64,000 nucleotides of DNA, from NCBI GenBank assembly GCA_965215565.1, contig CBDCDZ010000004.1, positions 1,056,001 through 1,120,000 on the forward strand, written 5' to 3'. Within the stretch, counting starts at the first letter, position 1; the number at the start of each line of letters is the position of its first letter. The position numbers and the translations under genes are program-made. Shown here piece after piece: positions 16,729 to 63,256 of the stretch. Source of the DNA: Trueperaceae bacterium. GTDB lineage: Bacteria > Deinococcota > Deinococci > Deinococcales > Trueperaceae. The notes under the pieces are model-generated. The model saw nothing but the letters and a program-made list of their open reading frames with translations, ran no database searches and had not been told where the DNA came from.

Positions 16729-16933
16729 TAGCAGTTCTACAACATATCGAGACAGTTGAGCGCAGATCTCTGTCCGCAAGGACTAGCGTTACGGGCAGGC
16801 CGCCCTGCCGTTGCGGGATTTCATCCCTTGAAGTGCGTGCTAGTTACGCAGTTTTCCGCAGGAAACATTGTTTTGTAAAGTGAGAGTGTTGCTTCGCAAA
16901 ACTTCGTACACTCTGACCAGATGATACCTGCTA
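16729..16933 (-). repeat. 111-nt dispersed element, copy with four inserts (21+21+25+27 nt)
   Basis: Reverse complement reads TAGCAGGTATCATCTGGT...GAACTGCTA; 205 = 111 + 94. Confidence 0.9.
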
Positions 16934-17378
16934 TGAAAACCGAATTCGAACTCATTGAAACTCTTCTGCGAAGCGGTGCTTGAGGTTGGGCATAGTGAAG
17001 GCGATGAGATGAGCGCCCGGGAAAGGGGGTGAACTGATACGGATTTCGGTGGATTGTCGCGTGTAGCGCCTCGTCAACAAAGACGTGCGGGAGCAAGAGA
17101 CGGGTTCAACCGTTTGAACGCGAGCCTCGACACAAGGAAATAAAGAGACAACCTATGTGTAGCGCGAAAGAGGTCACGAAATATATATTGGCGGCGTACC
17201 ACGTTTTGTGTGTAGAGCTGCGCGAAGACCGTAAGAGACATTGGCATTTCACATATACGCAGAGCGGGACACCTTCTACATCTCAACCCTAGCGCACTGA
17301 GAGGCTGAGCTAGTCGGTATAGCAGCGAAGGGGTATACTTCATAGTAATTAGACTTACATTTCGTCTACGCTTGACCT

Positions 17379-19187
17379 ATGCGACACCTCATCGTCATCT
17401 CATGCTTGCTCGCTCTGTTCTTGGTGGGGTGCTCTACCTCGACTCCGCCCACGATAACGCCCACTGACCCTACTCCCGAAAGCCCCGCCAACCCTGCACC
17501 TACTGACCCTGCGCCCACTGAACCAACCCTGCCTGAGCCGCTACCCACCACCCTTACGCCTGAAGAGGCTGACCGCGTGGCGTTGGCGCTCTGGCGCAAC
17601 GATGACCTCAGCAAGCACCCCAAAGGGTCCTGCTCGGGCTGCCACGGCGCGGACTATTTCGACCTCGCTCGCATCGGCTCGGCGGACGAGGATATTGCGC
17701 GGCGAGCGGTGATCGACGGGGCGAGTCAACGAGAGGCTGACGCGCTCGTGCAAGCGGTAAGGCAGATGCGCGAAACATATGGGCTGGGCGCAACCGACGC
17801 CCGTGCCTTTCGCCCCTTTCAACCGAGCGGCGCGGTCCTGCTACCCGACCTGGGCGACGCCGAGCACATCGCGGCGGTGAAGCGCGATATCGCGTTCGGC
17901 GAACAACTCGAGACCCTTTTACCCACCCTGTTTGGCGAACGCATCGACACACTGTACGGTGCCGAGCGAGCCAGGGACGAAATGCTGGACTTAGCGCAGG
18001 GGACAAATGAGGCGGGCGCGAACCCGCGGCGCATCCAGCTACGCGACTTACCTACAGGCATCACCTACCCGCGCTGGTCAGCGGACCTGCACCACGGCGC
18101 GGACGAGGGGACGCTGAACGACTGGCTTGCCGACGTCGCCCACGACGCCAAACCGGAGCACCGCGAGGCGTGGTTGGAGCTGCAAGACGCCTACCTTGCA
18201 ACCCCTAGCGATGAGAACTTCTGGCGCATGTACCTCGCCGCCGAGGAGATGACCGTCACGCCCCTCTTCGGTGAGTGCACTATGACGGGGGGAAGGGCGC
18301 ACATCGCCTGCGCAGACGTCAAACGCTTCGCCCGCGAGAAATTTTTAAGTGCGCTCACGGGCCAACACATGATGCGCTTAGAGGCGTCCGGGCGTGAGGG
18401 GTTTACAGACGGCGCGTTGGCCTTTTCGTACCTTGACACCGACCCCCGCTTCGACTTCATGAAGGAGCGCAAAAGCCGCACGCTTCTACCTGCGAACCTC
18501 TGGGAAGTGGGCGATAAGGGGCGAAGCACTTTAGAAAATTCCCAAGCTGAGGGGAGTTTTCGCGAGAACCTAGCGAAGCTCGGCTACCCCGAGTTCGTGC
18601 AAGACAGCATCGATCCCAACCGCAGTGCGAGCCAAGAACAACACGAGCTGCGCCTCGCTTGGTTCTGGTTGGGCTTTACCTTCGACCCCTCCTTTGCACG
18701 TATCCACTCCTCTAACGCCACCAAAGTCGGTGAGTACATGGTGGCGAGTTTGCTCAGCGAACGCATGTTTATCCACAACACCTTTCACACCAATATGCGC
18801 CTCGTCACCAAAGGCACGCTCCCTGAAGCGAACGTCAAGCAGACCGGACGTGAACGCGCTCTGGAACAGTTGCCAACCACTTTTCGCATGAACTACGGCT
18901 ACTTCTGGGCTTATGGGCGCACGGTGCTCAACTGGCAGGAGAGCAAGAAGTTCGGCGTCCTCATCCCTGAAGACCTCAAGGCGGAGCAAGCCGACCTCTG
19001 GCACCGCTTTACGGCAAACGGGTTTCGGATGAGCATGTTTCTTTACTCAGCAGCATTGGACGAGAGTGCGCCTAGAGACAGCGTTGTCTTTGATGCGATG
19101 AAAACGCACTTCGAGACTTATGAGCCCGAGCACCAGGAGGCGGACGCGGCGCTGATGGCGCAGCTTAGGCGCAAACTGGAGGAGTAG
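17379..19187 (+). CDS. Lipoprotein with Pro/Thr linker and a single CxxCH heme-c motif
   Basis: Lipobox LVGC, PTDP/PTEP repeats, SCSGCHG. Confidence 0.8.
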   Translation: MRHLIVISCLLALFLVGCSTSTPPTITPTDPTPESPANPAPTDPAPTEPTLPEPLPTTLTPEEADRVALALWRNDDLSKHPKGSCSGCHGADYFDLARIGSADEDIARRAVIDGASQREADALVQAVRQMRETYGLGATDARAFRPFQPSGAVLLPDLGDAEHIAAVKRDIAFGEQLETLLPTLFGERIDTLYGAERARDEMLDLAQGTNEAGANPRRIQLRDLPTGITYPRWSADLHHGADEGTLNDWLADVAHDAKPEHREAWLELQDAYLATPSDENFWRMYLAAEEMTVTPLFGECTMTGGRAHIACADVKRFAREKFLSALTGQHMMRLEASGREGFTDGALAFSYLDTDPRFDFMKERKSRTLLPANLWEVGDKGRSTLENSQAEGSFRENLAKLGYPEFVQDSIDPNRSASQEQHELRLAWFWLGFTFDPSFARIHSSNATKVGEYMVASLLSERMFIHNTFHTNMRLVTKGTLPEANVKQTGRERALEQLPTTFRMNYGYFWAYGRTVLNWQESKKFGVLIPEDLKAEQADLWHRFTANGFRMSMFLYSAALDESAPRDSVVFDAMKTHFETYEPEHQEADAALMAQLRRKLEE

Positions 19188-19370
19188 CTACGGTAGCTGT
19201 TTTATTCAGCCTTCTAGCCTGACTTTTGCGCAGCCAACCGGGCCTTCACGTACATAAAAATTTTCTCCTCAAGCTTCGAATCTAACTCAGGTTAGCGCAG
19301 CGTGCCGAGCGAGGCTCTAGCTTAGTTTGACCCAAGGATGGCGAAAACAAGGGTTTAAGGGGTCTTGATT

Positions 19371-19481
19371 TAGCAGGTATCATCTGGTCTGAGACGCCCT
19401 CACTGTAGAAAACATTGTTTAGCACGCGCTTTGTAAGATGATACCTGCGTCATTCTGTCTCAATATGTTTTGAAAGTGCTA
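19371..19481 (+). repeat. 111-nt dispersed element, core only
   Basis: TAGCAGGTATCATCT...AGATGATACCTGC...AAGTGCTA; exactly 111 nt. Confidence 0.9.
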
Positions 19482-19512
19482 ATTGTATTGGAACATGACT
19501 TGGGACAAAGAG

Positions 19513-19541
19513 AAACGGTAGAGATTGAACCTCTACCGTTT
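19513..19541. terminator. Intrinsic terminator of the tRNA operon
   Basis: AAACGGTAGAG-7nt-CTCTACCGTTT. Confidence 0.75.
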
Positions 19542-19558
19542 TAACGTCTTTTCTTTAA

Positions 19559-19632
<74 letters not shown>

Positions 19633-19715
19633 AAGTTGTAGAGGTATCATCTACAATTCACTGGATGAACCTTTTTACAAAATACCATCTCTAAGGGGAG
19701 ACGATACCTCCAGCG

Positions 19716-19807
<92 letters not shown>

Positions 19808-19931
19808 AAGTTTTTATAGGTAACATCTACACTCTACAGATGTACCTAGCTAACGCTGACCTTCCAAAAGCGGAGGAAATGTACTTACACACTAGCAGGA
19901 GAGCGTTGACTTAAGGACAACACCTCCACCT

Positions 19932-20021
19932 TGGCGGAGGGCGAGGGATTCGAACCCCCGATAGAGTCGCCCCTATAACGGTTTTCAAGACCGTCGCATT
20001 CAACCGCTCTGCCAGCCCTCC
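19932..20021 (-). tRNA. tRNA-Ser(TGA)
   Basis: GGAGGGCTGGCAGAGCGG..ACGGT-CTTGAAA-ACCGT, long variable arm, ends GCCA. Confidence 0.96.
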
Positions 20022-20040
20022 ACTTATGCCAGCGTTGACG

Positions 20041-20070
20041 AGTATACAAGGCTGGGGCACGCCATGTCAA
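20041..20070 (-). promoter_or_regulatory. sigma70 promoter of the tRNA operon
   Basis: TTGACA-18nt-TATACT, 19 nt upstream of tRNA-Ser(TGA). Confidence 0.8.
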
Positions 20071-20192
20071 TGCGTGAAGAGCAAAAACAGCAATTCCAAA
20101 TGAAGCGTCGAAATTTCGTCAACAAGGCAATATGGCACAGGTTTGCTGAGAATCACATAGAGAACATTGCCTCTCAGGCGCTTTTGGGAATA

Positions 20193-20302
20193 TAGCAAGT
20201 ATCATTTGGTTTAAGCTAACCTCACTATGAAGAACACCGTTGAGCCCACACTTTCTTGAATGAGACTTGCGCTGTCCCAATCAGTACTTGTGGTAATTGC
20301 TC
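20193..20302 (+). repeat. 111-nt dispersed element, diverged copy
   Basis: TAGCAAGTATCATTTGGT...GAATGAGACTTGC...AATTGCT; stem kept by compensatory changes. Confidence 0.75.
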
Positions 20303-20455
20303 TATCTGAAATGACGCCGGTGTCAGCGCAAGGAGTTAAGCCCCCTCATTCACTACATTTCAACCTCTTGTTCATTCTATAAGCAGTGGAAGGAGCACGC
20401 GGCAGTATCCAGTTTGGAAAGTAAGGAGGAAGCTTGACGCTTCTTGTAGCAGCCT

Positions 20456-21169
20456 TTATAACTTATCTTTGGGCAAGTTCTTCGCCGCCCACGTCACCTG
20501 TCGCCACAGACCTCTCAAGGCTAAAACTTCGCGCTCGCTCAGCTCAGCCCGGTCAAAAATGCCTCGGAAGAGTTCGCGGGCGCTCGCTTCACGCTGAGCG
20601 TCGGTGTAGCCGATGAGGTGGAGCATTTGGATGAGCTGAGCGTACATGGGCTCGAGCGTCTCCCTCGGCGCGAGGTTTGAGAGGTCTCTCGTCTCCCCCA
20701 CTTCCACCTGATGCGCCACGAACCACTCATACGCGACGAGTTGCACCGCCTGGGCGAGGTTGAGTGAGGCGTAGTCCGAAGTTGGGATTTGGATATAACC
20801 CTGGCAGTGCTCCAGGTCTTCGTTGCTGAGCCCGAAGTCTTCGGGACCGAACACGGCGGCGACCTCTTCAGGGGGGAGCGACTGCGCAGCTTCCCTGGCG
20901 CTGTAGACGCGCTGGTTGTTCGTTCTGGGACGCGCCGTCGTACCGAGGACGAGCTTGCAGCCCGCCACGGCTTGGGCTAGCGTGTCGCACCGAACAGCCC
21001 GGTCTAAGACATCGCCCGCGTGAGACGCTAAGGCGAACGCCCGTTTGCCGAGAGGTCGTTGCGGCGAGACGAGGTAGAGCGCACCCAGACCAAAGTTCTT
21101 CATCGCTCTGGCGGCTGCGCCCACGTTCGCGGGCTCTTTGGGGCGGACGAGAATGATTCTTAGGGGCAC
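20456..21169 (-). CDS. TrmJ/LasT-family SPOUT RNA methyltransferase
   Basis: IILVRPKEPANVGAAARAMKNFG, FGPEDFGLSN, SLNLAQAV; GTG 21169. Confidence 0.9.
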   Translation of the reverse strand: MPLRIILVRPKEPANVGAAARAMKNFGLGALYLVSPQRPLGKRAFALASHAGDVLDRAVRCDTLAQAVAGCKLVLGTTARPRTNNQRVYSAREAAQSLPPEEVAAVFGPEDFGLSNEDLEHCQGYIQIPTSDYASLNLAQAVQLVAYEWFVAHQVEVGETRDLSNLAPRETLEPMYAQLIQMLHLIGYTDAQREASARELFRGIFDRAELSEREVLALRGLWRQVTWAAKNLPKDKL

Positions 21170-21238
21170 ATAAGAGTATATTTGACACCTGCTATTTAGC
21201 GCAACGTTCGCAGAACAAAGCCGTGCTACCTTATTCAT

Positions 21239-21823
21239 ATGTTAGGCAAAATCTTTCGCAAAGAGCCAGACAACCCCAAAGTTCCCGCCGGGCAGAGCGT
21301 CACCGAACGCTTTCCCGTGTTGACGTACGGACCGACGCCGCGCGTGAGCGAAGAGGAGTTCGAGCTGCGCGTGTTCGGGCGCGTCAAAGAGCAGGCTTTT
21401 AGCTGGCAAGACCTCATGGCGCTGCCGCAGACAACCCTCACTAAAGATTTTCACTGCGTGACGCACTGGTCCAAACTTGATGTCGGCTGGACGGGCATTC
21501 TGACGACGGACCTGATGGAGGTCTTGGAGCCCCAGAGTAACGCAACCCACGTCATGTTCCACTGCTACGGCGGCTACACGACGAACCTCGAGATGGACGA
21601 CTTCTTAGCCGACGGGTGCATGTTGGCGCACAAGTTAGAGGGCGGACCCATCCCCGTAGAGCACGGCGGACCGATGCGCACGCTCATCCCGCACCTCTAC
21701 GCTTGGAAGAGCGCGAAGTGGCTCTCGGGCATCGAGTTTATGGACGGCGATAAGCCCGGCTTCTGGGAGCGTAACGGCTACCACATGAGGGGCGACCCCT
21801 TCAAAGAAGAGCGCTACAGCTAA
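21239..21823 (+). CDS. Sulfite-oxidase-like molybdopterin oxidoreductase (YuiH-like)
   Basis: PAGQ..T..FPVL, DFHCVTHWS, HGGPMR, YAWKSAKW, GFWERNGYH. Confidence 0.9.
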   Translation: MLGKIFRKEPDNPKVPAGQSVTERFPVLTYGPTPRVSEEEFELRVFGRVKEQAFSWQDLMALPQTTLTKDFHCVTHWSKLDVGWTGILTTDLMEVLEPQSNATHVMFHCYGGYTTNLEMDDFLADGCMLAHKLEGGPIPVEHGGPMRTLIPHLYAWKSAKWLSGIEFMDGDKPGFWERNGYHMRGDPFKEERYS

Positions 21824-21826
21824 AAA

Positions 21827-21860
21827 AGCGGGAGGGGAAGCTCAGGCTTCCCCTCCCGCT
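21827..21860. terminator. Bidirectional terminator between the oxidoreductase and rpsT
   Basis: 15-bp stem AGCGGGAGGGGAAGC/GCTTCCCCTCCCGCT. Confidence 0.85.
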
Positions 21861-21876
21861 AAACCTCTGAACTAAT

Positions 21877-22140
21877 TTACGCTTGCGCCGCTAAGCGCTT
21901 CGCCAAACGCGACTTTTTGCGAGCAGCGGTATTCTTATGGAGCGTCGAGCCCTTCGCGGCTTTGTCGATGAGGCTTACGGCAACTTTATGATACTTTTCA
22001 GCGTTCGCCTCGTCGCCAGATTCGGCGGCGGCGACGGCTTTTTTACTAAACGTGCGAATCGTGCTTTTAAGTGCCCGGTTTTTCGCCCGCGCTTCTTGCG
22101 ATTGGCGGTGGTACTTCATTGCCGATGGGTTTCTTGCCAT
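21877..22140 (-). CDS. rpsT: 30S ribosomal protein S20
   Basis: [42 protein letters not shown]. Confidence 0.96.
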
Positions 22141-22347
22141 GCTCTTCCTCTTTCTTCGCTCATACGTCGATATCTCAGTAGGGATTGTGGACCTAAATAT
22201 GGCGCGTGAACGCGCCTCAACCTTGAAAGTGTAGCATAGCAGCGCCCGGAGAGGCAACGCCGTGAAACGAAAGTAGAGCGCAATATTACCCTAAATGCGT
22301 ACGGTCTCTGGGCAAAAGCCTCGAGGCACTCACCCTTATACACTCAC

Positions 22348-23019
22348 CTAGTCTTCAGACAACCCCACGTGCTCCATGAGCCTCGCCACTTGCGCGCGGA
22401 GTTCGGCAACCTCTCGGCGCAACACGCTCACGTCGTCTTGAGGTGGCGTGTGAGAGGATGCTGACGCACTCGCAGAGATAACCCTCGAGTCTCCCTCACC
22501 CCCCCGTACCCTCGGCTTGAGCTTTTCGGGGTCCACGCCTAGCGTGTGGTTCCAACGGTCCTGGCTCTGCCCCGGTCCACGCCCATAGTTTTTGACCAGA
22601 GGTGGGCGGTGTTCTTGGAGCCGCGCCAAGCTCTCCTCGACGGCCGCCACATCGGGGAAGTGCGTGTAGCGCTCCGTGCGCGTGCGCAGCTCGCCGGGCG
22701 TCTGGAGTCCACGCAGCATCAGCACGGCGAGCACGGCGAGGTCTCTGCCGCGAACGTCTAACGCCTCGACCAGTTTATGGTGGTGTTTGACGGCGCGTTC
22801 GCTCACCCCTCTCGAGGACTGCATCAGCCCCTTGTCGCTCAGGAGACGCAAGGTGGCTTCTACCTCGAGCGAATCGTAAGCAGTCACTGGGTCACGGTTG
22901 GTCCTCTGGTTGCACGCTAAAACGAGCGCGTTCGTCGAAAGCGGATACGCTTCGGGCGTCGTGCGCTCCTTCTCGACGAGCGAGCCGAGCACGCGCAGTT
23001 CGATATCACTTAAACTCAC
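22348..23019 (-). CDS. YceH/DUF480 family protein
   Basis: E.RVLGSLVEKERTTPEAYPLS.NAL..ACNQ.TNRDPV, LRG.QTPGELR.RTER. Confidence 0.9.
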   Translation of the reverse strand: MSLSDIELRVLGSLVEKERTTPEAYPLSTNALVLACNQRTNRDPVTAYDSLEVEATLRLLSDKGLMQSSRGVSERAVKHHHKLVEALDVRGRDLAVLAVLMLRGLQTPGELRTRTERYTHFPDVAAVEESLARLQEHRPPLVKNYGRGPGQSQDRWNHTLGVDPEKLKPRVRGGEGDSRVISASASASSHTPPQDDVSVLRREVAELRAQVARLMEHVGLSED

Positions 23020-23082
23020 GACACAGAGTCTAGCAAATTGCGGCTTTTCGTGCCCTATCTCGAGCCGCAGATATGAAACCTC

Positions 23083-23241
23083 TAGCAGATATCATCTGGT
23101 TTGAGACACTCTCACTTTTGAGAACATTGTTTCGCTCTGCGAAAACTGCGTAAGCAGCACGCACGTTCTGGGATGAAATCCCGCTAGTCCTTGCGGACAG
23201 AGACCTGCGCCCATCCGTCTCAATATGTTTTGGAACTGCTA
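23083..23241 (+). repeat. 111-nt dispersed element with two inserts (23+25 nt)
   Basis: 159 = 111 + 48; TAGCAG...CTGCTA ends. Confidence 0.9.
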
Positions 23242-24530: not shown

Positions 24531-24641
24531 TAGCAGGCATCATCTGGTTTGGGACGCTCCCACTGTTCGAAGCGGCGTCTAGCACACACATTCGGAGATG
24601 ATATCTGCGCTCATCCATCTCAGTATGTCTTGGAACTGCTA
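24531..24641 (+). repeat. 111-nt dispersed element, core only
   Basis: Exactly 111 nt, TAGCAGGCATCATCT...GGAACTGCTA. Confidence 0.9.
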
Positions 24642-24659
24642 TAGACCCGTACCGGGCTA

Positions 24660-25787
24660 CTAGAACTTGGCGAGCCCGCGCTCGCGCGCCCACACGACGG
24701 CTTCGGCCCTCGAGTGCACCCCGATCTTCTCATAAATTTGCGTGATGTAGTTGCGCACCGTCTGCTTGGCGATGCCCAGGTCTTGCGCGATGGTGGTGTT
24801 GTCTAGGCCCTGCGCCAAGCGCTCCAAGACCTCTCTCTCCCGTTTGGTGAGCCCCGAGACCGCCGCCGTGTCCACCCCTTCGGAGCGGAGCAGGGCGAGC
24901 TTTTCCATGACCGAGCGCGAGAGCCACGCGGTATCCGACATGACCTCTTCAATCGCTTGAACGAGTTGACGCTCGGTGCGTTGGCGTTCGGTTACGTCAT
25001 AGAACATCAGCAGCACGTCGGCGACGGGTTTGGTGTCGTCTAAAATCTCGGCGGAGGCTAAGACGTCGCGCACGTCGCCCGCTTTCGTGCGAATCTGCAG
25101 CTCTAGTTCACGAAAACCCTGGGCGCTCGCTAAGTGCGCGGCGAACCTCGCGCGGTCCGCTTCGCTCGCCCATAGCCCGAGTTCTGCGCCCGTGCGCTTC
25201 GTGACCTCTTCTTCGCGAAACCCTGTCAGCGTCAAAAAGCTGCCGTTGACCTCTAAGATGCGCCTGTCTCGCATCATGCAAGCGGGCACGGGCGCGGCGT
25301 GAAACATCTTGCTGAGGTGCACCTCGACCTCTTTTTGCGGCGTGATGTCCGCGAAGGTCAAGATGCCGCAGGTGTCGCCGTCAAGTTCCAAGGGCTTTGC
25401 GGAGACTAAGACCACCTTCTGGACCCCCGACTTCGTAGTGAGCTCCACCTCCACCTTCGAGACCTGCTGCCAGGTGCGCGGCGCGTTGAGGAGCGCTTCG
25501 CGCTGGCGCGGGTCCGTGAAGAGGTCTAGTTGCGGCAGCGCCTCGCCGCGCACCTCGCGCTGCATATAGTCCGTAAGCTCGGCGAAGCCGCTATTAACCA
25601 TGACGACGCGCTCGTCCATGAGCCGCACGATAATAGCGGGCGCGGGGTTCACATCGAACACGGCGTAGAAGCGCTCCTCCGCCTCTTGGCGCTCGCGCTC
25701 GGCTTTGCGCCGCTTGCTCTCGGCTCGCTCCTTGTCGCTTCTCAGTTCATCTTTCGGCTTTTCGCTCACGTTTTCAATATCGCTCAT
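24660..25787 (-). CDS. PAS-PAS-LuxR transcriptional regulator
   Basis: Two PAS/PAC repeats (DITPQK, DVTERQR); C-terminal LTKREREVL..G..N..IA..L.IA..TVRNY..IY.KIGV.SR. Confidence 0.92.
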   Translation of the reverse strand: MSDIENVSEKPKDELRSDKERAESKRRKAERERQEAEERFYAVFDVNPAPAIIVRLMDERVVMVNSGFAELTDYMQREVRGEALPQLDLFTDPRQREALLNAPRTWQQVSKVEVELTTKSGVQKVVLVSAKPLELDGDTCGILTFADITPQKEVEVHLSKMFHAAPVPACMMRDRRILEVNGSFLTLTGFREEEVTKRTGAELGLWASEADRARFAAHLASAQGFRELELQIRTKAGDVRDVLASAEILDDTKPVADVLLMFYDVTERQRTERQLVQAIEEVMSDTAWLSRSVMEKLALLRSEGVDTAAVSGLTKREREVLERLAQGLDNTTIAQDLGIAKQTVRNYITQIYEKIGVHSRAEAVVWARERGLAKF

Positions 25788-28404: not shown

Positions 28405-28419
28405 CTCATCTCCTTATTT

Positions 28420-28549
28420 TAGCAGGTATCATCTGGTCAGCTGCACCTTCACTAAAGATAACCTCGTTTAGCACGCACTTGATTGTGATGATATCTGCGA
28501 AGAAGTGCTTCGCATAACTATGTTCAAGCAACGATAAGTGGAACTGCTG
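28420..28549 (+). repeat. 111-nt dispersed element, subtype B, with an 18-nt insert
   Basis: TAGCAGGTATCATCTGGTCAGCT...AAGCAACGATAAGTGGAACTGCTG. Confidence 0.88.
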
Positions 28550-28554: not shown

Positions 28555-28665
28555 TAGCAGGTATCATCTGGTTTGAAACACTCGTACTTTTGAGAATGTT
28601 GTGCAGCACGCACATACTGAGATGATGTCTGCGCTCATCCGTCTCGGTATGTTTTGGAACTGCTG
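28555..28665 (+). repeat. 111-nt dispersed element, core only, tandem to the previous copy
   Basis: Exactly 111 nt, 5 nt after the previous copy. Confidence 0.9.
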
Positions 28666-31666: not shown

Positions 31667-31840
31667 TAGCAGGTATCATCTGGTCAGCTTGGGCGAAGCC
31701 ATGCGAAGCAACGCTCTCACCAAAGGGAACATCGTTTCCTTCGGAAAACTTCGTAATTAGCACGCACTTTAGATGATGATATCTGCGAAGAAGTGTTGCT
31801 TCGCATAGTTGCACTCAAGCAACGATAAGTGGAACTGCTA
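31667..31840 (+). repeat. 111-nt dispersed element, subtype B, with three 21-nt inserts
   Basis: 174 = 111 + 63. Confidence 0.9.
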
Positions 31841-35119: not shown

Positions 35120-35339
35120 TGGCAGTTTCAAAACATACTGAGACGGATGAGCGCAGATTTCAACTCGCAAACCGATCCCGCTCTCAGGCGAAGCCTAGCG
35201 GGACGGCTTCGCCTAAGAACGGAACCTCATCTCTTGAAGTGCGTGCTAGTTACGCAGTTTTCCGCAAGAAACATCATTTTACAAAGTGAGAGTGTTGCTT
35301 CGCACCGCTTCGCGCACTCTGACCAGATGGTACCTGCTG
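35120..35339 (-). repeat. 111-nt dispersed element with inserts of 21+21+67 nt
   Basis: 220 = 111 + 109. Confidence 0.9.
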
Positions 35340-35442: not shown

Positions 35443-35465
35443 TAGCAGTTTCGAACACATACACC
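35443..35465 (-). repeat. Relic right end of the 111-nt element
   Basis: Reverse complement GTATGTGTTCGAAACTGCTA versus element end (A/G)TATGTTTTGGAACTGCTA. Confidence 0.5.
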
Positions 35466-41390: not shown

Positions 41391-41525
41391 CAGCAGGTAT
41401 CATCTGGTCAGAAACACTCTCACCTTAGAAAACACTGCTCAGCGCGCACATCTATGAGATAAGGTTCCATTACAGCAAGCTGTGAAATTTGTGCCCGTTT
41501 AGCTCAATATGTCACGGAAATGCTA
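41391..41525 (+). repeat. 111-nt dispersed element with a 23-nt insert
   Basis: CAGCAGGTATCATCTGGTCAG...GGAAATGCTA. Confidence 0.85.
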
Positions 41526-53122: not shown

Positions 53123-55045
53123 ATGCTACTCGCCGCCTTGCACAAGATCGAAAAGTTCTACGGCGAACAGGTTGTGCTCAGCGGCGCGACTTTAGAAATT
53201 CGTAGTGCCTCGAGGCTCGCTCTCATCGGACGCAACGGCGCGGGCAAGTCCACACTCTTGCGCCTCTTGATGAGTGCCGAAGAGCCGGACAGCGGCGCGG
53301 TCTATAAGCGCGACGGCGTGACCTTGGCGATGTTGGAGCAAGACCCCTTGATCGACGCGGGGCGGAGCGTGCTGGAGGTCTCGGAGGGGGCGTTTACGGA
53401 CCTGGACAGGTTGGAGGGGGAACTCTCGCGGCTCGAGGCGCAAGGCTTGGACCAGCACGAGGTGTACGAGCAGTGGGAGCATCTCCATGAGGTCTTCGAG
53501 CGGCGCGGCGGGTACGAGAGACGGGCGCGGCGCGACTCGGTTCTCTACGCGCTGGGCTTTCGTGGGCGCGAACACGAGGTTGCTTCGCACCTCTCCGGCG
53601 GTGAAAAGACGCGCTTAGGGCTGGCGCGGCTCCTGATGGCGCAGCCCGACGTGCTCCTCTTAGACGAGCCCACCAACCACCTCGACATGGAGATGCGCGA
53701 GTGGTTGGAGGGCTACCTGGGGCGCTACCCCGGCGGCGTGCTCCTCGTCTCACACGACAGGGCGTTTTTGGACTCGGCGAGCAACGCGACAGCGGAGATC
53801 GCCCTTGGTACGCTGCGGACCTTTGACGGCACGCCGAGCCGCTACCGTGAGGCGCGCGCGGAGCAACTTGCCATTGAAGCGGCGACGCGCAAGAATCAGC
53901 AGCAGGAGTTGGCGCGTCTGGACGCCGCCGCGACGCGCATGAAGCGCTGGGCGGGGCAGAACGAGAAGCTCCACCGCCGCGCCAAAGCGATGGAGAAGCG
54001 CGTGGACCGCTACCAGGGCGGGATGATTGGCGAAGCCGAGCGTACGGAGCGCACCACCCGCTTCCGCTTCGACTCGGAGCCCTCGGGCGAGATCGTCTTA
54101 CAGGCGGCGCACCTCAGCAAACGCTTCGGCGACAAGTCCCTCTTCGAAGACGTGCGCTTCACCGTGCGCGCGGGCGAGCGCATTGCATTAGTCGGACCCA
54201 ACGGCGCGGGCAAGTCCACCTTTCTCAACGTCGCTTTAGGCAACCTCGCCAGCGACAATCCCAGAGCCACGCTGGATTACGGCGCGCGGGTGCGCGTCGG
54301 CTACTACGATCAGGAGTTGCGCGGCGTGAACCCGGAGAACACCCTCATCGAAGAGATGATTCGGCTCGTGGGCGACACCGAGGCGCACAACCTCTTGGGG
54401 CGCTTTCTCTTCCCCTACGACGCGCAGTTCAAGCGCGTCGCGGACCTCTCGGGCGGCGAACGCGCGCGCTTGGCGCTCCTCAAGCTGACCTTGGGCGAGT
54501 ACAACTTCTTGGTCTTAGACGAGCCCACCAACCACCTCGACCTGGAGATGATCGAGGCGTTGGAGGACGCCCTGGCGGAGTACGCGGGCACGCTCCTCAT
54601 CGTCTCGCACGATAGGCGTTTTGTGCAAGCGACGACGAACCTCGTGTGTGAGGTGCGCGGCGGGCGTTTCGAAACCTTCGAGGGCGACTGGAGCTTCTAT
54701 CAGCGCAAGCGGCAAGCGCGCGCGGCGCAGATGCAGGAGGCAGCTCGAGCCGAGGTTTCTAACTCGTCTAAAGAGGTTTCCAACTCACCTAAAGTTCCTA
54801 AGATATCCACGAAGAAGACCCCCTCTAAGTGGCAACTGGACCGCGACTCGCAAGCTTTAGAAGATGACATCGAGAGGCTCGAGACCACTCTCACATCTAT
54901 CACCGAACAACTTGCCCAACCCGGACAACTCAAAGGCGAAGAGATCGCCGCGTTGGGGGAGGAGCACGCGCGGCTCGAGGCAGAACTGCTGGAAAGAATG
55001 GCGCGGTGGGAAGAGGTGACGGAGATGTTGAGTGAGAAGGTGTAG
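53123..55045 (+). CDS. ABC-F family ATPase (Uup-like)
   Basis: Two NBDs ([32 protein letters not shown] twice), no TM segments, C-terminal coiled coil. Confidence 0.93.
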   Translation: MLLAALHKIEKFYGEQVVLSGATLEIRSASRLALIGRNGAGKSTLLRLLMSAEEPDSGAVYKRDGVTLAMLEQDPLIDAGRSVLEVSEGAFTDLDRLEGELSRLEAQGLDQHEVYEQWEHLHEVFERRGGYERRARRDSVLYALGFRGREHEVASHLSGGEKTRLGLARLLMAQPDVLLLDEPTNHLDMEMREWLEGYLGRYPGGVLLVSHDRAFLDSASNATAEIALGTLRTFDGTPSRYREARAEQLAIEAATRKNQQQELARLDAAATRMKRWAGQNEKLHRRAKAMEKRVDRYQGGMIGEAERTERTTRFRFDSEPSGEIVLQAAHLSKRFGDKSLFEDVRFTVRAGERIALVGPNGAGKSTFLNVALGNLASDNPRATLDYGARVRVGYYDQELRGVNPENTLIEEMIRLVGDTEAHNLLGRFLFPYDAQFKRVADLSGGERARLALLKLTLGEYNFLVLDEPTNHLDLEMIEALEDALAEYAGTLLIVSHDRRFVQATTNLVCEVRGGRFETFEGDWSFYQRKRQARAAQMQEAARAEVSNSSKEVSNSPKVPKISTKKTPSKWQLDRDSQALEDDIERLETTLTSITEQLAQPGQLKGEEIAALGEEHARLEAELLERMARWEEVTEMLSEKV

Positions 55046-55095
55046 CAGGTATTATCTGGTTATAGACGCCCCTAGCTGAGGAAGTGACGACTTAG
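55043..55095 (+). repeat. Truncated left part of the 111-nt element overlapping the ABC-F stop codon
   Basis: TAGCAGGTATTATCTGGTTATAGACGCCC. Confidence 0.7.
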
Positions 55096-56792: not shown

Positions 56793-57023
56793 TGTTCTTG
56801 AGAGCATCTGCTAAAGCATCTTGAGGACTCACTTAGCAAAATGTCGGACAGAAGGGTGAAGCGTATTATTCCGAGCCAGACCAGAGTGGAGCTTCGCAAC
56901 GAAGCTCTGCTCACCTATTCTAGTGGCTACGCAGCTCGAGACCTCTTTCCCCGCACCTTCCCCCACATCTTTTTTCGGGGTGACACTCATCTTTCGGACC
57001 TCGGCAAACGGACTCCTCAATAG

Positions 57024-57968
57024 ATGTTCCAGTACATCTTGCAACGCCTTCTGCTCGCCGTCCCCACCCTACTCGGCGTCTTCACCATCATCTTCGCGCT
57101 GACCTACCTCATGCCGGGCGACCCGGTGCGCGCGGCGATGGGCGAGAACTACCGCCGCGCCGACCCCGAGACCATCGAGCGAGTGCGCGAGCGCTTGGGT
57201 CTGAACGACCCTTGGTACGTGCAGTACACGCGCTTTTTGGGACGTACGGTGCGCGGCGACTTGGGCGAGAGTTTCGTGTTGGACGAGCCCGTGCTAGGGA
57301 TTATCAGCTACCGCTTCCCGCGCACGGTGCAGCTCATGGTGGCGGCGCTCTTCGTCGCGATCCTCATCGGGATTCCGGCGGGCTTGCTCGCGGCACGCTA
57401 CCAGTACACCTGGATTGACCACACCCTGATGCTCGTCGCGCTCGTCGGGGTTGCGATGCCGGTTTTCTGGCAGGCGATTTTGGCTAAGATTTTTTTGACT
57501 CAAGACACGTACGGTATCGCGCTCTTTCCCGTCGCGGGCTACGGGGGCGGCAACCCGCTCTACATGGTGCTGCCCTCGCTCGTGTTGGGCACGCACCTGA
57601 GCGCCACCATCGCCCGCGTGATGCGCTCGTCGCTCCTAGAGGAGCGCAGCAAGGACTACTCGAGGACCGCCCGCTCGAAAGGGCTCAGCGGCGCGCAGAT
57701 CATCACTCGCCATCAGCTCCGCAACGCGCTCATCCCTGTATTGACCGTGATCGGGTTGGATGTCGGCTACCTCTTGGGCGGCTCGGTGGTCACAGAGACG
57801 GTCTTTAACTGGCCCGGTTTGGGGCGTGCGGTGGTCAACGCCATCTTCCGTCAGGACAGTCCGGTCATCATCGGCACGCTCGTCTTCGGCGCGGTGCTCT
57901 TCATCTTGGTGAACCTCGTCATCGACCTCTTGTACGTGGCGCTCAACCCGCAGATTCAGTACACGTGA
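57024..57968 (+). CDS. Peptide ABC transporter permease (DppB/OppB-like)
   Basis: MPGDP, GDLGES, TARSKGL..H.LRNALIPV, ETVFNWPGLG. Confidence 0.93.
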   Translation: MFQYILQRLLLAVPTLLGVFTIIFALTYLMPGDPVRAAMGENYRRADPETIERVRERLGLNDPWYVQYTRFLGRTVRGDLGESFVLDEPVLGIISYRFPRTVQLMVAALFVAILIGIPAGLLAARYQYTWIDHTLMLVALVGVAMPVFWQAILAKIFLTQDTYGIALFPVAGYGGGNPLYMVLPSLVLGTHLSATIARVMRSSLLEERSKDYSRTARSKGLSGAQIITRHQLRNALIPVLTVIGLDVGYLLGGSVVTETVFNWPGLGRAVVNAIFRQDSPVIIGTLVFGAVLFILVNLVIDLLYVALNPQIQYT

Positions 57969-58819
57969 CGGGCTTTCAGCGCTTTACGCGCAGCAGGATC
58001 GTCAGGACCTTTTTGCGCCACCGGGTGGGGCTTATCGGGTTGGGCATCGTTGCGGTCTTCAGCCTCGCGGCGATTTTCGCGCCGCTGCTCGCGCCGCACG
58101 ACCCCTTGGAGCAGCGCATTGCGACGGCGCGGCTCGAGCCTCCCTCCGCCGAGTACCCGCTCGGCACGGACGAACTCGGGCGCGACCTCTTGAGCCGCCT
58201 CATCTACGGCGCGCGCATCTCCATGCGCATCGGGCTCATCGCCGAGGGCATCGCGCTGGGCATCGGTATCACGCTAGGAAGCTTGGCGGGCTACCTGGGC
58301 GGCTGGGTGGACAACCTCATCATGCGCCTCACGGATGTGTTCTTCGCCATCCCTTCGCTGCTCTTTCTGATCGTCGTCGTGTTTATCTTCGACGCGAGCG
58401 CCACGACTATCTTCGTGGCGCTCGGGCTCATCAGTTGGCCCAGCGAGGCGCGGCTCATGCGCTCCGAGGTGCTGAGGCTGCGCGGTCGCGAGTTCGTCAC
58501 CGCCGCCGAAGCGTTGGGCTCGCCCAAACGCCGCGTCATCGTCCGCCACATCCTCCCGAACGCGCTCGCCTCGATGGTGGTTATCGGCTCGCTGGGCGTG
58601 GCGGGCGCAATTTTAAGCGAAGCGACGCTCTCCTTTCTCGGACTGGGCATCCAGCAACCCGTGCCGAGTTGGGGCACGATGATCAACCAGGGGCAGGAGT
58701 ACATCTTCACCGCGTGGTGGTACAGTGTCTTTCCGGGGCTCACGATTATGTTGGTTGTGCTTGGGTTTAACTTCGTCGGCGACGCGCTGCGCGACGCGCT
58801 GGCGGTCGAGGAGCGCTAA
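57965..58819 (+). CDS. Peptide ABC transporter permease (DppC/OppC-like)
   Basis: LGTDELGRDLLSRLIYGARIS, EFVTAAEALG, RHILPN, LSFLGLG, GDALRDAL. Confidence 0.93.
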   Translation: MTGFQRFTRSRIVRTFLRHRVGLIGLGIVAVFSLAAIFAPLLAPHDPLEQRIATARLEPPSAEYPLGTDELGRDLLSRLIYGARISMRIGLIAEGIALGIGITLGSLAGYLGGWVDNLIMRLTDVFFAIPSLLFLIVVVFIFDASATTIFVALGLISWPSEARLMRSEVLRLRGREFVTAAEALGSPKRRVIVRHILPNALASMVVIGSLGVAGAILSEATLSFLGLGIQQPVPSWGTMINQGQEYIFTAWWYSVFPGLTIMLVVLGFNFVGDALRDALAVEER

Positions 58820-59151
58820 TGCGCTCTGAAGCGTTGTCTCGCAGACTTGGCAAATATGGGCTTAGTGGATGGCGAAAGGAGTCGTGATGATGTAACTCGA
58901 GACCTTCGCGAGATGATGGTGCACAAAACGTGCGGTTAAACCTGTCGCACTTCCCCACTCAAGGAGGGCACCTTCCGCGTTCATTGAGGTTGAAGTGTAC
59001 CCTTCTGCCTCGACAAAACATCCTGTGAGATTCAAACCGTGCAGATCTTGGAATCAGATCATATAGAATTTTGGAACAAATTTCTTAACGCCGAAAGAGG
59101 TTCTGACAACGTCTTGACAGTAGCCCGTAAAGCTAGGGACCGGAGGTCAAC

Positions 59152-62100
59152 ATGAGATTTATCTACGCCGCATTACTTCTACTCATTGCCGCATGTGGAG
59201 CGTCACCTAACGAGGTGAACCAGCCCGATGGCACCCTCGTAGGTGACGCCGACGTCACCTTTTCAGAAGACGCCACCGCTTACTCGCTCCAGGTGCTGCA
59301 CGCCGGCGACCAGGAAGCGAGCCCGGACGTCATCACCAATGCGCCGAACTTCTCAGCCATCGTCAACGGGTTGAGAGAAGAGTCAGGTAACACTGTGACG
59401 CTCGGCTCGGGCGACCTCGTCATCCCCGGCGCGTTCTACTTCGCGACGGACGGGCGGGCGGACGTACGCATCGCGAACGCCATCGGCTTTCAGGCGATGG
59501 CTTTGGGCAACCACGAGTTCGACCTCGGCACGAACGCGCTCGCGGGGCTTATCGCGCAAGAGGTCGAGGACGACGGCGCGCTCATCTACGCCGGGACGCA
59601 GTTCCCCTACCTAAGCGCGAACTTGGACTTCAGCGCGAACGAAGACCTGAGCGGCCTCGTCGTTTCGGGCGCGCAAGCCCCGGAGCCTAACAGCGTCACG
59701 GACAGCGTGGTGATCGAGGTGGGCGGCGAGCGTATCGGTGTCGTCGGCGCAACGACGCCGCAGCTACCCAACATCTCGTCACCCGGCACGGTGCAGGTGT
59801 TGCCTATGCAGCAAAGCGACATCGAAGGTTTGACTGAGCTTATTCAAGAGGAGATCGACGCACTTACGGGCGAGGGCGTCAACAAGGTCATCCTGCTCTC
59901 CCACTTGCAACAGATTCAAAACGAGATCGACTTGGCGGGTCTCTTGCAAGGGGTGGACGTCATCATCGCAGGCGGCTCGGACACTCTCTTAGCGAACGAT
60001 GACGACCGCATCCGCGAGGAATATGGCAAGGAGCCGGGCGGCTCCTACCCGCTGCTCTACACCTCGGCGGCGGGCGAGCCCGTCGCGCTGGTCAATACAG
60101 ACCGCGAATACCGTTACGTGGGGCGTCTCCTGACCGACTTCGACGCGGACGGCGTCTTGACGGGTATCGGCGAGGCGAGCGGCCCTTACGCCGCCGACGC
60201 CGAAGGCGTGGCAGCCTTCGGCGCGGAGCCTGCGCCCGAAGTCGTGGAGGCGGTGAACGAGGTCGAGGAGACCCTAGTCGACCTCGACGGCACGCTCTAC
60301 GGCGCGACCGAGGTGTTCTTAAACGGTATCCGCGAGGCGGTGCGCACTCAGGAGACGAACCTCGGCAACCTCACGGCGGACGCGAACTTAGCTGCCGCGC
60401 TCTCTCAGAGCGACAGTGTCACCCTGTCGCTTAAAAACGGTGGTGGCATCCGCGCTTCTATTGGCGACATCTTGCCCGGCGACACCGGCGAGCGGGTCCC
60501 GCCGCAGGAGAACCCCTTAATCGAGGATGACCAAGACGGCGACGTGTCGCAACTCGACATCCAGAACTCGCTGCGCTTCAACAACACGCTCGTGACCCTT
60601 ACGGTGACGGCGGAGGAGCTGAAGCGGCTGCTCGAGCACGGCGTCGCCGCCACCGAGCCCGGCGCGACACCGGGGCAGTTCCCGCAGGTGGGCGGCTTCG
60701 CCTTCTCCTTCGATCCGAGCCGACAAGCGCTGCAGTACGATGAGGCGGGCGAACTAGTCCAGGAGGGCGAGCGCGTGCGGAGCCTCGTCGTGTTTGACGC
60801 GGAGGGCAGCGTCGCGGACACGGTGGTAGAGAACGGCGAATTGCAGGGTTCACCCATGCGCACCTTCGAACTCGTCACCTTGAACTTCTTAGCCGAGCTG
60901 CGCGAGAACGGCTTAGGCGGCGACGGCTACCCCTTCCCGGCGGGCGAACGCACCGAACTTACAGGCGAAGCGGGCGAGCCCTTGGGCGAGCAAGCGGCGC
61001 TCCAAACCTACTTAGAGGCGAACTTCCCGCGCACGGACCCCTACAGCCAAGCGGACACGCCTGCCGAAGAGGACGCGCGCATCCAGAACTTGAGTGTCCG
61101 CGAGGACACAATCGGCGAGGGCAATACGGGCGGCGGGGGCGATACGGGCAGTGGGGGCGAGCCCGAGACCGTGCCCATCTACGCCGTCCAGGGTGAAAGC
61201 CACGTCTCGCCCTTCGAGGGTGAAGACGTCGTCACGACGGGCATCGTCACGGCGGTGGGCGCGAACGGCTTCTACCTCCAAGACGCCGAAGGGGACGGAA
61301 ACGAGGCAACGTCAGACGCGCTCTTTGTCTTCACCGGAAGCGAAGCGCGGAGCGAGCAGACCGTGAGCGTCGGCGACGAAGTAGAGGTCAGGGGCTCCGT
61401 GAGCGAGTTCGCCCCCGGCGGCGCGGACACGGGCAACCTCTCGACGACGCAAATTTTTAGACCGGGCGTCGAGGTGCTGTCTCGTGACAACCCCCTGCCG
61501 AGCCCAGTCCTGCTCGTTCAAGGCGAACGGACGCCGCCCACCGAGGTCATCGACGACGACCGCTCGGAGCAGTACAGTCTCAACGCAGGCGAGGGCGACT
61601 ACCAGCCCGCCGAAGACGGGGTGGATTTCTACGAGAGCTTAGAGGCGATGCGCGTTACGGTCGAGGGCGCTCAGGTGGTAGGTCCCACCAACCGCTTCGG
61701 CGAAATCTTCACCGTGTTAGAGGCGAGTGGCGCGACCGGCTTGAGCGAGCGCGGCACCCTCAACATCAGCCCAGGCGACTTCAACCCCGAGCGCATCCAG
61801 ATCGACGAGGATGAGGACCTCTTCGACGTCGACCTTCCGCAGGTGGATGTTGGCGCACTCCTCACGGACGTGACGGGCGTCGTCGGTTACGGCTTCGGCA
61901 ACTTTGAGGTCTATCCAACGGCGGCGTTCGGGGTCTTCGAGGTGGAGGATGCGTCCCCGCTCGAGCCCGAGATAAGCACCTTGGAGGGCAGTGAAGACGA
62001 ACTCAGCGTCGCGAGCTACAACGTGCTCAACTTGGACCCGAACGACGACGACGGCGACGCGGACATCGCTGAAGGTCAGTTTGCGGACATCGCTACCGAC

Positions 62101-62982
62101 ATCGTCACGAACTTAAACGCCCCCGACATCGTCGCGCTGCAAGAGGTTCAGGACAACGACGGCTCGGTCACACCCGGCGAGTCAACCATCACGGCGGCGG
62201 ACGTGACGCTGCAAACGCTGGTGGACGCTATCGTAAACGCGGGGGGTCCCGAGTACGCCTCCATTGACAACCCCTTCATCGGCAACAACACGAGCGGCGG
62301 GCAACCCGGCGGCAACATCCGCACCGCCTTTTTATACAACCCCGAGCGCGTCAGCTTGGCAGGCGAGCCGCAGCTAGGCGACTACGACGCGGGCGCGGTG
62401 CAGACCGTCACAGACCCGCAGGACCAACAGACGAATGAGGACAATCCCTTCTTCGGCAGCCGCCTGCCCCTCGCCGCTACCTTCACCTTCAACGCTCAAG
62501 AGGTCACGGTCATCAGCAACCACTTCTCCTCCAAGGGAGGCAGCAAGCCGCTCTTAGGCTCAACCCAGCGGACCGTCGTCGCGGACGCGGAGCCGGGCGA
62601 GGGTCAAGAGGACCCCGAAATCAACGGCAGCTTAGACGAACGTCGCGACCAAGCGCGCGCGCTCAAAGCTTACGTGGACGCCCTCTTAGCAGAGGACGCG
62701 GACGCGAATATCGTCGTCGCCGGTGACTTCAACGAGTTCGAGTTCATCTCGCCCTTGCAGACGCTCGAGACGAGCCTCGTCAACCTGACCGAGACGCTGG
62801 AGCCCGACGAGCGCTACTCCTACATCTTCCAGGGCAACTCGCAGTCACTGGACCACATCTTGGTGAGCGCGTCGCTGGCGGAAGGCGCGCAGTTCGACGC
62901 GGTGCACGTCAACAGCGAGTTCGCCGAGCAAGCCTCTGACCACGACCCGCTCCTGGCGCTCCTCTCACTTTCTGAGCGCTAA
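59152..62982 (+). CDS. Lipoprotein: 5'-nucleotidase fused to an OB fold and an endonuclease/exonuclease/phosphatase domain
   Basis: Lipobox IAAC; LGNHEFD, VRTQETNLGNL.AD, NGGGIRAS; IYAVQG..H.SP..G..V...GIVTA; SYNVLNL, LQEVQD, NHF.SK, GDFN, LDHI, SDHDP. Confidence 0.92.
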   Translation: MRFIYAALLLLIAACGASPNEVNQPDGTLVGDADVTFSEDATAYSLQVLHAGDQEASPDVITNAPNFSAIVNGLREESGNTVTLGSGDLVIPGAFYFATDGRADVRIANAIGFQAMALGNHEFDLGTNALAGLIAQEVEDDGALIYAGTQFPYLSANLDFSANEDLSGLVVSGAQAPEPNSVTDSVVIEVGGERIGVVGATTPQLPNISSPGTVQVLPMQQSDIEGLTELIQEEIDALTGEGVNKVILLSHLQQIQNEIDLAGLLQGVDVIIAGGSDTLLANDDDRIREEYGKEPGGSYPLLYTSAAGEPVALVNTDREYRYVGRLLTDFDADGVLTGIGEASGPYAADAEGVAAFGAEPAPEVVEAVNEVEETLVDLDGTLYGATEVFLNGIREAVRTQETNLGNLTADANLAAALSQSDSVTLSLKNGGGIRASIGDILPGDTGERVPPQENPLIEDDQDGDVSQLDIQNSLRFNNTLVTLTVTAEELKRLLEHGVAATEPGATPGQFPQVGGFAFSFDPSRQALQYDEAGELVQEGERVRSLVVFDAEGSVADTVVENGELQGSPMRTFELVTLNFLAELRENGLGGDGYPFPAGERTELTGEAGEPLGEQAALQTYLEANFPRTDPYSQADTPAEEDARIQNLSVREDTIGEGNTGGGGDTGSGGEPETVPIYAVQGESHVSPFEGEDVVTTGIVTAVGANGFYLQDAEGDGNEATSDALFVFTGSEARSEQTVSVGDEVEVRGSVSEFAPGGADTGNLSTTQIFRPGVEVLSRDNPLPSPVLLVQGERTPPTEVIDDDRSEQYSLNAGEGDYQPAEDGVDFYESLEAMRVTVEGAQVVGPTNRFGEIFTVLEASGATGLSERGTLNISPGDFNPERIQIDEDEDLFDVDLPQVDVGALLTDVTGVVGYGFGNFEVYPTAAFGVFEVEDASPLEPEISTLEGSEDELSVASYNVLNLDPNDDDGDADIAEGQFADIATDIVTNLNAPDIVALQEVQDNDGSVTPGESTITAADVTLQTLVDAIVNAGGPEYASIDNPFIGNNTSGGQPGGNIRTAFLYNPERVSLAGEPQLGDYDAGAVQTVTDPQDQQTNEDNPFFGSRLPLAATFTFNAQEVTVISNHFSSKGGSKPLLGSTQRTVVADAEPGEGQEDPEINGSLDERRDQARALKAYVDALLAEDADANIVVAGDFNEFEFISPLQTLETSLVNLTETLEPDERYSYIFQGNSQSLDHILVSASLAEGAQFDAVHVNSEFAEQASDHDPLLALLSLSER

Positions 62983-63145
62983 GCGCCGCTTTTCAGTGCC
63001 GCCTCTCGAGTATAGAAAGACGCTCGCGGGGCGGCAACACGCCACCATCACAGGAATTCAAGGACTCGTACGGGGTTGCTTACGTAACTTAGATTTGCAA
63101 GTTAAGTCACTATCATAGTTGCTTGCAAACGCTGAAAGATACTCT

Positions 63146-63256
63146 TAGCAGGTATCATCTGGTCTGAGACACTCCCACTATGGAAAACATCGTTTAGCAC
63201 GCACATTCCGAGATGACATCTGCACTCAACTGTCTCAATATGTTTTGGAACTGCTA
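63146..63256 (+). repeat. 111-nt dispersed element, core only
   Basis: Exactly 111 nt, TAGCAGGTATCATCTGGTCTGAGAC...GTCTCAATATGTTTTGGAACTGCTA. Confidence 0.9.

Follow-up and report, generated by a model that had tools for sequence, protein, structure and literature searches.

A very abundant 111-nt MITE family with plug-in hairpin modules in a Trueperaceae genome

Correia elements of Neisseria and QMITE1 of Coxiella are units of 100–150 nt with terminal inverted repeats (TIRs), which occupy intergenic DNA in hundreds of copies and have no transposase of their own. Correia elements duplicate TA, contain promoters and carry a site for integration host factor (IHF). QMITE1 is flanked by 2–3-nt direct repeats of variable sequence, as stated in PMC5896051. 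A duplication of 3 bp is typical of IS5-family and PIF-Harbinger-type elements and their miniature inverted-repeat transposable elements (MITEs). In enterobacteria and pseudomonads, repetitive extragenic palindromes (REPs) and bacterial interspersed mosaic elements (BIMEs) form mosaics of short palindromic units in intergenic DNA, and PMC11208160 and bioRxiv 10.64898/2026.03.19.712850 describe them as landing sites for IS110-family elements. Within the Deinococcota, the small non-coding repeats (SNRs) of D. radiodurans amount to 295 copies of at least nine types with "an unusual, mosaic structure" and are absent from D. geothermalis, according to PMC1978522, which cites Makarova et al. 1999. 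Here we analyzed a window, that is, a whole stretch of 64,000 nt (positions 1056001–1120000 of chromosome C4 in genome G000 of a Trueperaceae bacterium), in which an earlier note, made from the sequence alone, had described an abundant 111-nt intergenic element. The core of this element is a new and very abundant MITE family, ordinary in kind. It is probably moved in trans by a DDE-type transposase that acts on its TAGCAG...CTGCTA ends and cuts with a 3-bp stagger, and hairpin modules form a separate layer upon it.

The element resembles Correia elements and QMITE1 in size, ends, copy number and location; unlike Correia elements, it duplicates three variable bases, shows no consistent promoter consensus and bears plug-in modules. 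It shares the 3-bp duplication with IS5-family elements, whereas the DDE_Tnp_4/IS5-like insertion sequence (IS) of the same genome has quite different ends, and no sequence link between it and the MITE was found. REPs differ in that they lack target duplications and depend on RAYT; the present element duplicates 3 bp, and the genome yielded no Y1 transposase standing on its own. Neither the features of an IS630-type MITE nor those of REP/RAYT or IS200/IS605 relics agree with the element. By description, the closest precedent for its mosaic build would be the SNRs, which, according to PMC1978522, are likewise short non-coding intergenic repeats of the same phylum, present in hundreds of copies and patchy across relatives. 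The MITE mosaic comprises 14 module combinations, and in this respect the likeness to SNRs consists solely in the word "mosaic" in that paper. In the literature on Truepera and Deinococcus repeats and MITEs, a search whose scope did not extend to the original 1999 SNR paper, no account of this family was found.

The source genome (4.49 Mb, 58% G+C) consists of the chromosome and three plasmids, C1–C3, of 24, 50 and 24 kb. An nhmmer profile returned 550 hits that merged into 510 elements, all chromosomal, covering 57.7 kb or 1.3% of the genome; its first version was derived from four copies in the window and its final version from 52 copies of exactly 111 nt. Chance was excluded by a 27-mer of the element, which had three matches at up to three mismatches compared with none in 100 shuffles. 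The core is 111 nt long, within the size range of MITEs, non-coding and without a reading frame of its own. Among 190 full-length hits, 97 measured 110–111 nt, and the remainder fell into classes near 132, 156, 179 and 200 nt. These steps of ~22 nt correspond to inserts of 21–25 nt, hereafter modules, among them a beta and a gamma type, at fixed sites after nt ~9, 13, 23, 49, 72 and 76. Their removal restores 111 nt. The fixed core length reported in the earlier note is real. Copies fall into subfamilies with a median pairwise identity of 0.74. Recent MITE activity is indicated by near-identical copies: 87 of 199 had a neighbor at 96% identity or more, and two pairs were identical. The copies in the window, in window coordinates, are as follows.

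16729..16933, minus strand: 205-nt copy, 111-nt core with modules at ~23, ~49 and ~72, the last nested; two colinear nhmmer hits merged (model 1–75 and 69–111)
19371..19481, plus strand: module-free 111-nt copy; nhmmer model 1–111, 102 bits
20193..20301, plus strand: copy of a divergent subfamily with left end TAGCAAGTATCATTTGG and the stem kept by two compensatory pairs; nhmmer 45 bits
23083..23241, plus strand: copy of 159 nt; beta module 3' of nt ~50, gamma module 3' of nt ~72
24531..24641, plus strand: module-free 111-nt copy with flanks TAG/TAG; empty site in relatives (alignment A2)
28420..28548, plus strand: 129-nt variant copy whose 3' part differs, having an additional hairpin after nt ~79; nhmmer model 1–110
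28555..28665, plus strand: module-free copy 6 nt 3' of the 28420 copy; nhmmer model 1–110 (hit 28555–28664), 98.6 bits
31239–31607: transfer-messenger RNA (tmRNA), Rfam match
31667..31805, plus strand: copy with modules at ~21 and ~49 and a variant 3' part, directly 3' of the tmRNA; nhmmer model 1–84 (hit to 31792)
35121..35338, minus strand: copy of 218 nt; modules at ~23, ~49 and, nested, at ~72; joined from two colinear nhmmer hits
41391..41525, plus strand: copy of 135 nt; one module of gamma type 3' of nt ~72; nhmmer model 2–111 (hit from 41392)
55043..55090, plus strand: relic, left 48 nt only; nhmmer model 1–48, 21 bits
63146..63256, plus strand: module-free 111-nt copy, the best profile match of the window; nhmmer model 1–111, 109.7 bits

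All 11 near-complete copies proposed in the earlier note were thus recovered by nhmmer. Of its three relics, the one at 55043 was found, but those at 35443 and 36777 were not at E ≤ 1e-3. The excess of plus-strand copies that it pointed out (9 of 11) holds inside the window but not genome-wide, where the strands are used equally (251 plus, 259 minus).

The sequences flanking the element carry the trace of its insertion. With the borders set at TAGCAG...[C/G]TGCTA, the 3-mers directly outside the two ends were identical in 86 of 111 full copies, compared with a mean of 3.3 and a maximum of 11 in 500 shuffles of partner flanks, and another four copies had a 4-mer repeat. Two-base flank matches were at the level of chance (9 of 111; shuffle mean 9.7). 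The terminal TA, in which the earlier note had seen a target typical of IS630/Tc1-mariner MITEs, therefore belongs to the element itself. The duplicated triplet is variable and A/T-rich, and a profile of the 86 sites revealed a roughly palindromic context, ~TTC-nnn-GAA. A palindromic target together with a 3-bp repeat is the expected trace of a dimeric DDE enzyme with a 3-bp stagger. A 3-mer duplication was also present in 13 of 20 copies from two congeneric genomes (G035 and G056) and a further genome (G003), and at three loci of other genera (L069, L072 and L073).

Comparison with the two congeners at orthologous sites showed filled and empty states. The copy at 24531 is missing in both, with the flank retained (alignment A2), and a public metagenome contig of a relative (X3) joins position 24531 to 24660, skipping the element. 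The copy at 31667 is missing at the orthologous site in G035 (alignment A3). Insertions were not common to the congeners at comparable sites. The filled/empty polymorphism that the earlier note had proposed to look for thus exists, but the duplication is of 3 bp and not of TA. Another copy, with flanks CTA/CTA, splits the open reading frame (ORF) of an IS630-family transposase. Directly after this copy lies a second insert of ~43–48 nt, with its own inverted repeat and an inner hairpin:

C4:~1933194–1933242 (L058:~882–930): second small insert, inferred from comparison with the uninterrupted plasmid paralogue at C2:~14869–15233

These data suggest a model in which a DDE-type transposase, a class to which the target signature points, would act in trans on the element ends, by cut-and-paste or by copying. 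Its cuts would be staggered by 3 bp and so yield the 3-bp duplication of a variable, A/T-rich target. The conserved parts of the core (nt 1–26, 50–59, 64–78 and 87–111) may represent what the enzyme needs, and an internal 13-bp stem (nt 3–15/66–78) may be kept as a binding site or as a top-strand hairpin. The modules of 21–25 nt would constitute a second layer, plugged into fixed core sites by a separate process.

The earlier note's description of a non-autonomous mobile element with no mobilizing gene nearby is supported. It had also proposed to look for a copy whose ends flank a transposase, recombinase or HUH ORF; no transposase with matching ends was found in the source genome. Colinear partial hits, stray ends, a scan for pairs of TIRs with target duplications and the ORFs inside candidate pairs disclosed no autonomous partner, and no autonomous relative with matching ends was found in the source genome, the carrier genomes of other species having been searched less than exhaustively. 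Inspection by eye of the left ends in G035 and G056, among the matches listed, gave no autonomous candidate. The source genome contains an IS5/DDE_Tnp_4-like IS, a second IS5-like IS, two IS3-family IS, IS630-family genes (DDE_3) and others, and ends were compared for IS identified by the Pfam families rve, DDE_Tnp_1, DDE_Tnp_1_2, DDE_3, DDE_Tnp_4 and Y1_Tnp. One of them, an IS5-family/DDE_Tnp_4-like IS of ~877 bp, is present in three near-identical copies with 17-bp inverted repeats and duplications AGT, AGG and ACT. No other IS of this genome was shown to duplicate 3 bp, but the ends of this one are unlike those of the MITE.

C4:1813835–1814711, C4:2532090–2532966 and C4:3307746–3308622: IS5-family/DDE_Tnp_4-like IS

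The partner transposase may have been lost, may look different or may reside in another genome.

Several observations weigh against a DDE-mobilized MITE. No left and right end lying 0.4–6 kb apart around a transposase was found in the source genome, and the ends of its IS (IS5/DDE_Tnp_4-like, IS3-like, IS630-like and others) are unrelated to the MITE ends. No exact 3-bp repeat flanks 25 of the 111 full copies. The TIRs are short; in our own reading of the consensus, six terminal and seven subterminal bases match, with 15 of 25 overall. Finally, among the pairs of the 13-bp stem, G:T outnumbered A:C by 281 to 57 in the source genome and by 47 to 8 in other genomes (our own count, at loci chosen by the 5' arm). 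Such an excess suggests that one strand in particular forms the pairs, and a model with a purely double-stranded binding site would not predict this.

We evaluated the inverted repeats on 34 copies drawn from five or more genomes. The earlier note had proposed four of them. The terminal repeat (nt 1–6/106–111) and the 13-bp stem (nt 3–15/66–78), which overlap at nt 3–6, were paired in 96–97% of the cells (the stem in 96.4%), and nt 19–25/87–93 in 87.8%. Only the first two pair well, and these are real; the TIRs, short and imperfect as they are, are present as in other MITEs. The helix 39–45/95–101 was rejected because only 64.7% of its cells were paired, and a central helix at ~29–50 was rejected as unpaired. 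In the copy at 20193, the compensatory changes reported for the stem are present (6:75 A-T and 14:67 T-A). Across the 34 copies, two of the 13 stem pairs were changed on both sides and six on one side only. The covariation score of 0.137 was not above that of shuffles (0.129) and was reached by 65 of 500; a mutual-information scan proved unusable, as subfamily structure dominates it. The folding energy of the copy at 63146 was that of shuffles (z = 0.18 as DNA and −0.05 as RNA), and the 205-nt copy gave z = −1.21 as DNA. Rfam matched nothing on the element at gathering score or at E ≤ 1, with only the tmRNA and tRNAs reaching the gathering score, in agreement with the earlier note's failure to recognize the family. 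The interleaving of the repeats has a simpler explanation: short TIRs, and an internal stem in which the element's left end is repeated in inverted orientation.

Gene calls in this analysis were crude (3534 ORFs by codon log-odds score, 82% of the chromosome). With respect to these calls, 508 of the 510 elements are intergenic, which extends the "all intergenic" of the earlier note to the whole genome. At least one element lies in 427 of 2354 intergenic regions of 50 nt or more (18%), and the spread over convergent, divergent and tandem regions tracks intergenic length. Where the flanking genes run in tandem, 164 copies are oriented against them and 117 with them, a modest antisense bias (binomial p ~0.005 by our own arithmetic), and the orientation of the element is nearly independent of the flanking genes. 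The pseudoknotted or alternatively folded RNA or single-stranded DNA that the earlier note had offered as one of two readings is borne out neither by this orientation nor by the covariation and folding results. No promoter or terminator site recurred among the copies. On the plasmids, no MITE copy was present where ~11 would be expected from length.

With the window copy at 63146–63256 as BLAST query, the element was present in 8 of 61 sampled Trueperaceae genomes, representing 4 of 36 genera. Among 301 Deinococcota genomes, 11 were positive, including the source genome and 9 of 102 other Trueperaceae. The 198 genomes of other families, which may or may not include D. radiodurans, gave one marginal match of 39 nt. 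Exact matches to the first 18 bases of the element came almost only from metagenome-assembled genomes of Trueperaceae or Truepera. Left-end 17-mers numbered 385 in the source genome at up to two mismatches and, at up to one mismatch, 94 in G035, 108 in G056, 25 in G003, 20 in G038 and 150 in G049. Copies from other genera are 71–77% identical and still 111 nt long.

The same evidence bears on four other explanations. An IS630/Tc1-mariner-derived MITE that duplicates TA would suit a unit that starts and ends with TA in a genome with IS630-family (DDE_3) genes. It is exceedingly improbable, since two-base flanks match at chance, the duplication consists of three variable bases outside the TA, and the empty sites fit a 3-bp duplication, excluding borders that are wrong by two bases; moreover, the copy inside the IS630-family transposase gene and that gene's element have no ends in common. 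A strand-specific mover would fit the bias of the stem for G:T over A:C, the many small hairpins and the insertion of modules without duplication, as expected of a relic of a single-strand HUH/tyrosine transposon (REP/REPIN-RAYT, or the palindrome-associated "PATE" of IS200/IS605) moved as a folded strand. Such elements lack target duplications, whereas the core has one of 3 bp in most full copies. The genome's sole Y1_Tnp domain lies inside a methyltransferase ORF of 1319 aa and was not found in the two congeners, and folding as DNA is that of shuffles; we therefore regard this origin as very doubtful.

The near-complete pairing of the 13-bp stem, with G:U tolerated far more than A:C, and modules that look like expansion segments of structured RNAs could also point to a structured non-coding or cis-acting RNA, for instance a pseudoknotted stabilizer or terminator, that spread as a repeat and functions as RNA. 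The empty Rfam search even at E ≤ 1, covariation within the range of shuffles, RNA folding at z near zero, equal strands genome-wide, the antisense majority in co-directional regions and the lack of a consistent promoter or terminator consensus make this very unlikely. Most module loops (101 of 142) are also of 3 nt, and triloops suit DNA hairpins better than RNA hairpins. A repeat recruited by the host as a nucleoid-protein, recombination or repair site and kept by selection, a role once proposed for Deinococcus SNRs, would agree with the occupancy of 18% of intergenic regions, the high conservation of parts of the element across genera and the emptiness of the three plasmids. It is hardly compatible with insertions that congeners do not have in common at comparable sites, nor with carriage by only 4 of 36 sampled genera, and PMC1978522 argues against a repair role of SNRs because D. 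geothermalis is without them; we give such a role very little credence. A MITE moved in trans by a DDE-type transposase remains the explanation we prefer.

The modules that separate the length classes of this MITE each consist of a short hairpin and a constant part. They may be nested or doubled and in either orientation, they are inserted without duplication, and removing them gives the exact 111-nt core. Modules of the beta type, at sites 49 and 76, start with TT, followed by a 3–6-bp stem with a usually 3-nt loop, and finish with a AAAACTnCGTAA-like tail. Among 257 beta-type tails, 142 abut a perfect hairpin of at least 4 bp (shuffle mean 14.9, maximum 24), and among these 142 hairpins there are 33 distinct stems, while 101 have a triloop. 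At site 23, the beta tail is present in the insert as its reverse complement, with a hairpin after it; this is thus the beta type turned round. In the gamma type, ATCCCGCTA comes first, then a hairpin, and lastly GAG. This type occupies nt 72, within the 3' arm of the stem; the 5' arm has the reverse complement of it at nt 8–10, the corresponding position in the inverted repeat.

In 199 near-complete cores, 119 were module-free at the five scored sites and 80 had at least one module; gamma and the site-76 module never occurred together. Module state differed in 74 of 113 pairs of copies whose cores are at least 96% identical, and two pairs with identical cores differ by one module alone. Gain or loss of modules is therefore faster than point changes. 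Modules are also found beyond the MITE. Of the strict beta tails, 28 of 104 lie outside it, many in other repeat families, and the reading frame of a GlcG-like gene is interrupted and shifted by an exact beta module of 23 nt, which the orthologue in G056 does not have. At least one other intergenic repeat family was seen with the same beta-type module, sometimes two in tandem, so the modules are common to several repeat families.

C4:~4084623–4084645 (L076:374–396): beta module in the GlcG-like coding sequence (alignment A4)
C4, for example at 2311324, 2311887, 2224388, 2616272, 3772017, 697229 and 215799: other repeat family with the beta module

Counts of a beta-tail 13-mer are 42, 17 and 20 for the three genomes of the genus and 0–1 for 58 other Trueperaceae, among them MITE carriers of other genera. 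This confinement to one genus indicates that beta is a later, genus-level addition on an older core. A gamma-type module was found in a copy of another genus (G023). Gain and loss of modules probably depend on a separate process, which could be tiny site-specific insertions or templated copy-choice or gene conversion among the ~500 copies. A bolder reading, which we advance only tentatively and consider rather unlikely, is that the modules would be a second, nested mobile layer and the smallest mobile units described, handled by a site-specific enzyme not yet recognized or by a kind of templated copy-choice that only these radiation-resistant bacteria have.

The Y1_Tnp domain mentioned above (IS200-like HUH) was rejected as a mover of modules, because it exists only fused within the methyltransferase and a search of G035 and G056, both of which have the MITE and modules, did not find it. 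The fusion itself is unusual. The domain is placed between the MmeI_Mtase and N6_Mtase parts of an Eco57I/MmeI-type ORF, and the neighbors are a 748-aa SNF2-helicase ORF and a PIN ORF.

C4:~3784707–3788666 (L105:2708–6667), minus strand: Y1_Tnp-containing methyltransferase ORF of 1319 aa

The left end of the MITE is itself the site of another mobile element, an IS110-family element of 1126 bp that encodes a 312-aa DEDD transposase (DEDD_Tnp_IS110 and Transposase_20). Seven copies are 99.7–100% identical and an eighth is at 79%. Each of them interrupts a MITE between nt 9 and 10 and always points the same way relative to it; the IS110-family element has no inverted repeats and makes no duplication.

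C4:638753–639878 (L110:254–1379): IS110-family element
C4, near 681665, 1227049, 1291030, 2530237, 3105967 and 4135764: other IS110-family copies
C4, near 3452692–3453307: diverged IS110-family copy

Its 180-nt leader contains an 11-mer that agrees with MITE nt 2–12 in 10 of 11 positions, as well as a 7-mer complementary to nt 10–16 and motifs that match the element's own right end. The matches to the MITE left end suggest a predicted target guide of a bridge RNA, an idea set out for the IS110 family in PMC11208160 and related papers. The leader motifs would fit a bridge-RNA target loop and donor loop.

The left-end motif also occurs outside complete copies. Tandem arrays contain 2–6 units of the left-end 17–18-mer with a period of 23–27 nt, some followed by the rest of the element.

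C4:1994337–1994448, C4:179903–180010, L010:301–438, L053:301–342 and L075:101–147: left-end tandem arrays

Hairpins between three tRNA genes (window 19633–19660 and 19808–19850) share the left-end motif GGTATCATC / GGTAACATC, which recurs repeatedly in a tRNA-flanked stretch at C4:4282815.

It is the module layer and the dedicated IS110-family parasite that lift this MITE above routine. The parasite offers a natural example of predicted bridge-RNA-type targeting at another mobile element, with the conserved MITE left end as its only landing site. The 3-bp duplication and the palindromic target give a concrete signature for hunting the transposase. As one intergenic region in five is occupied, the element needs to be masked or modeled in the annotation and regulatory analysis of Trueperaceae, and the frameshifted GlcG-like gene shows that the module process can reach coding sequence. 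The modules make it practicable to study very small hairpin inserts that come and go quickly and leave no duplication, and they may account for the long-unexplained "mosaic" repeats of Deinococcus.

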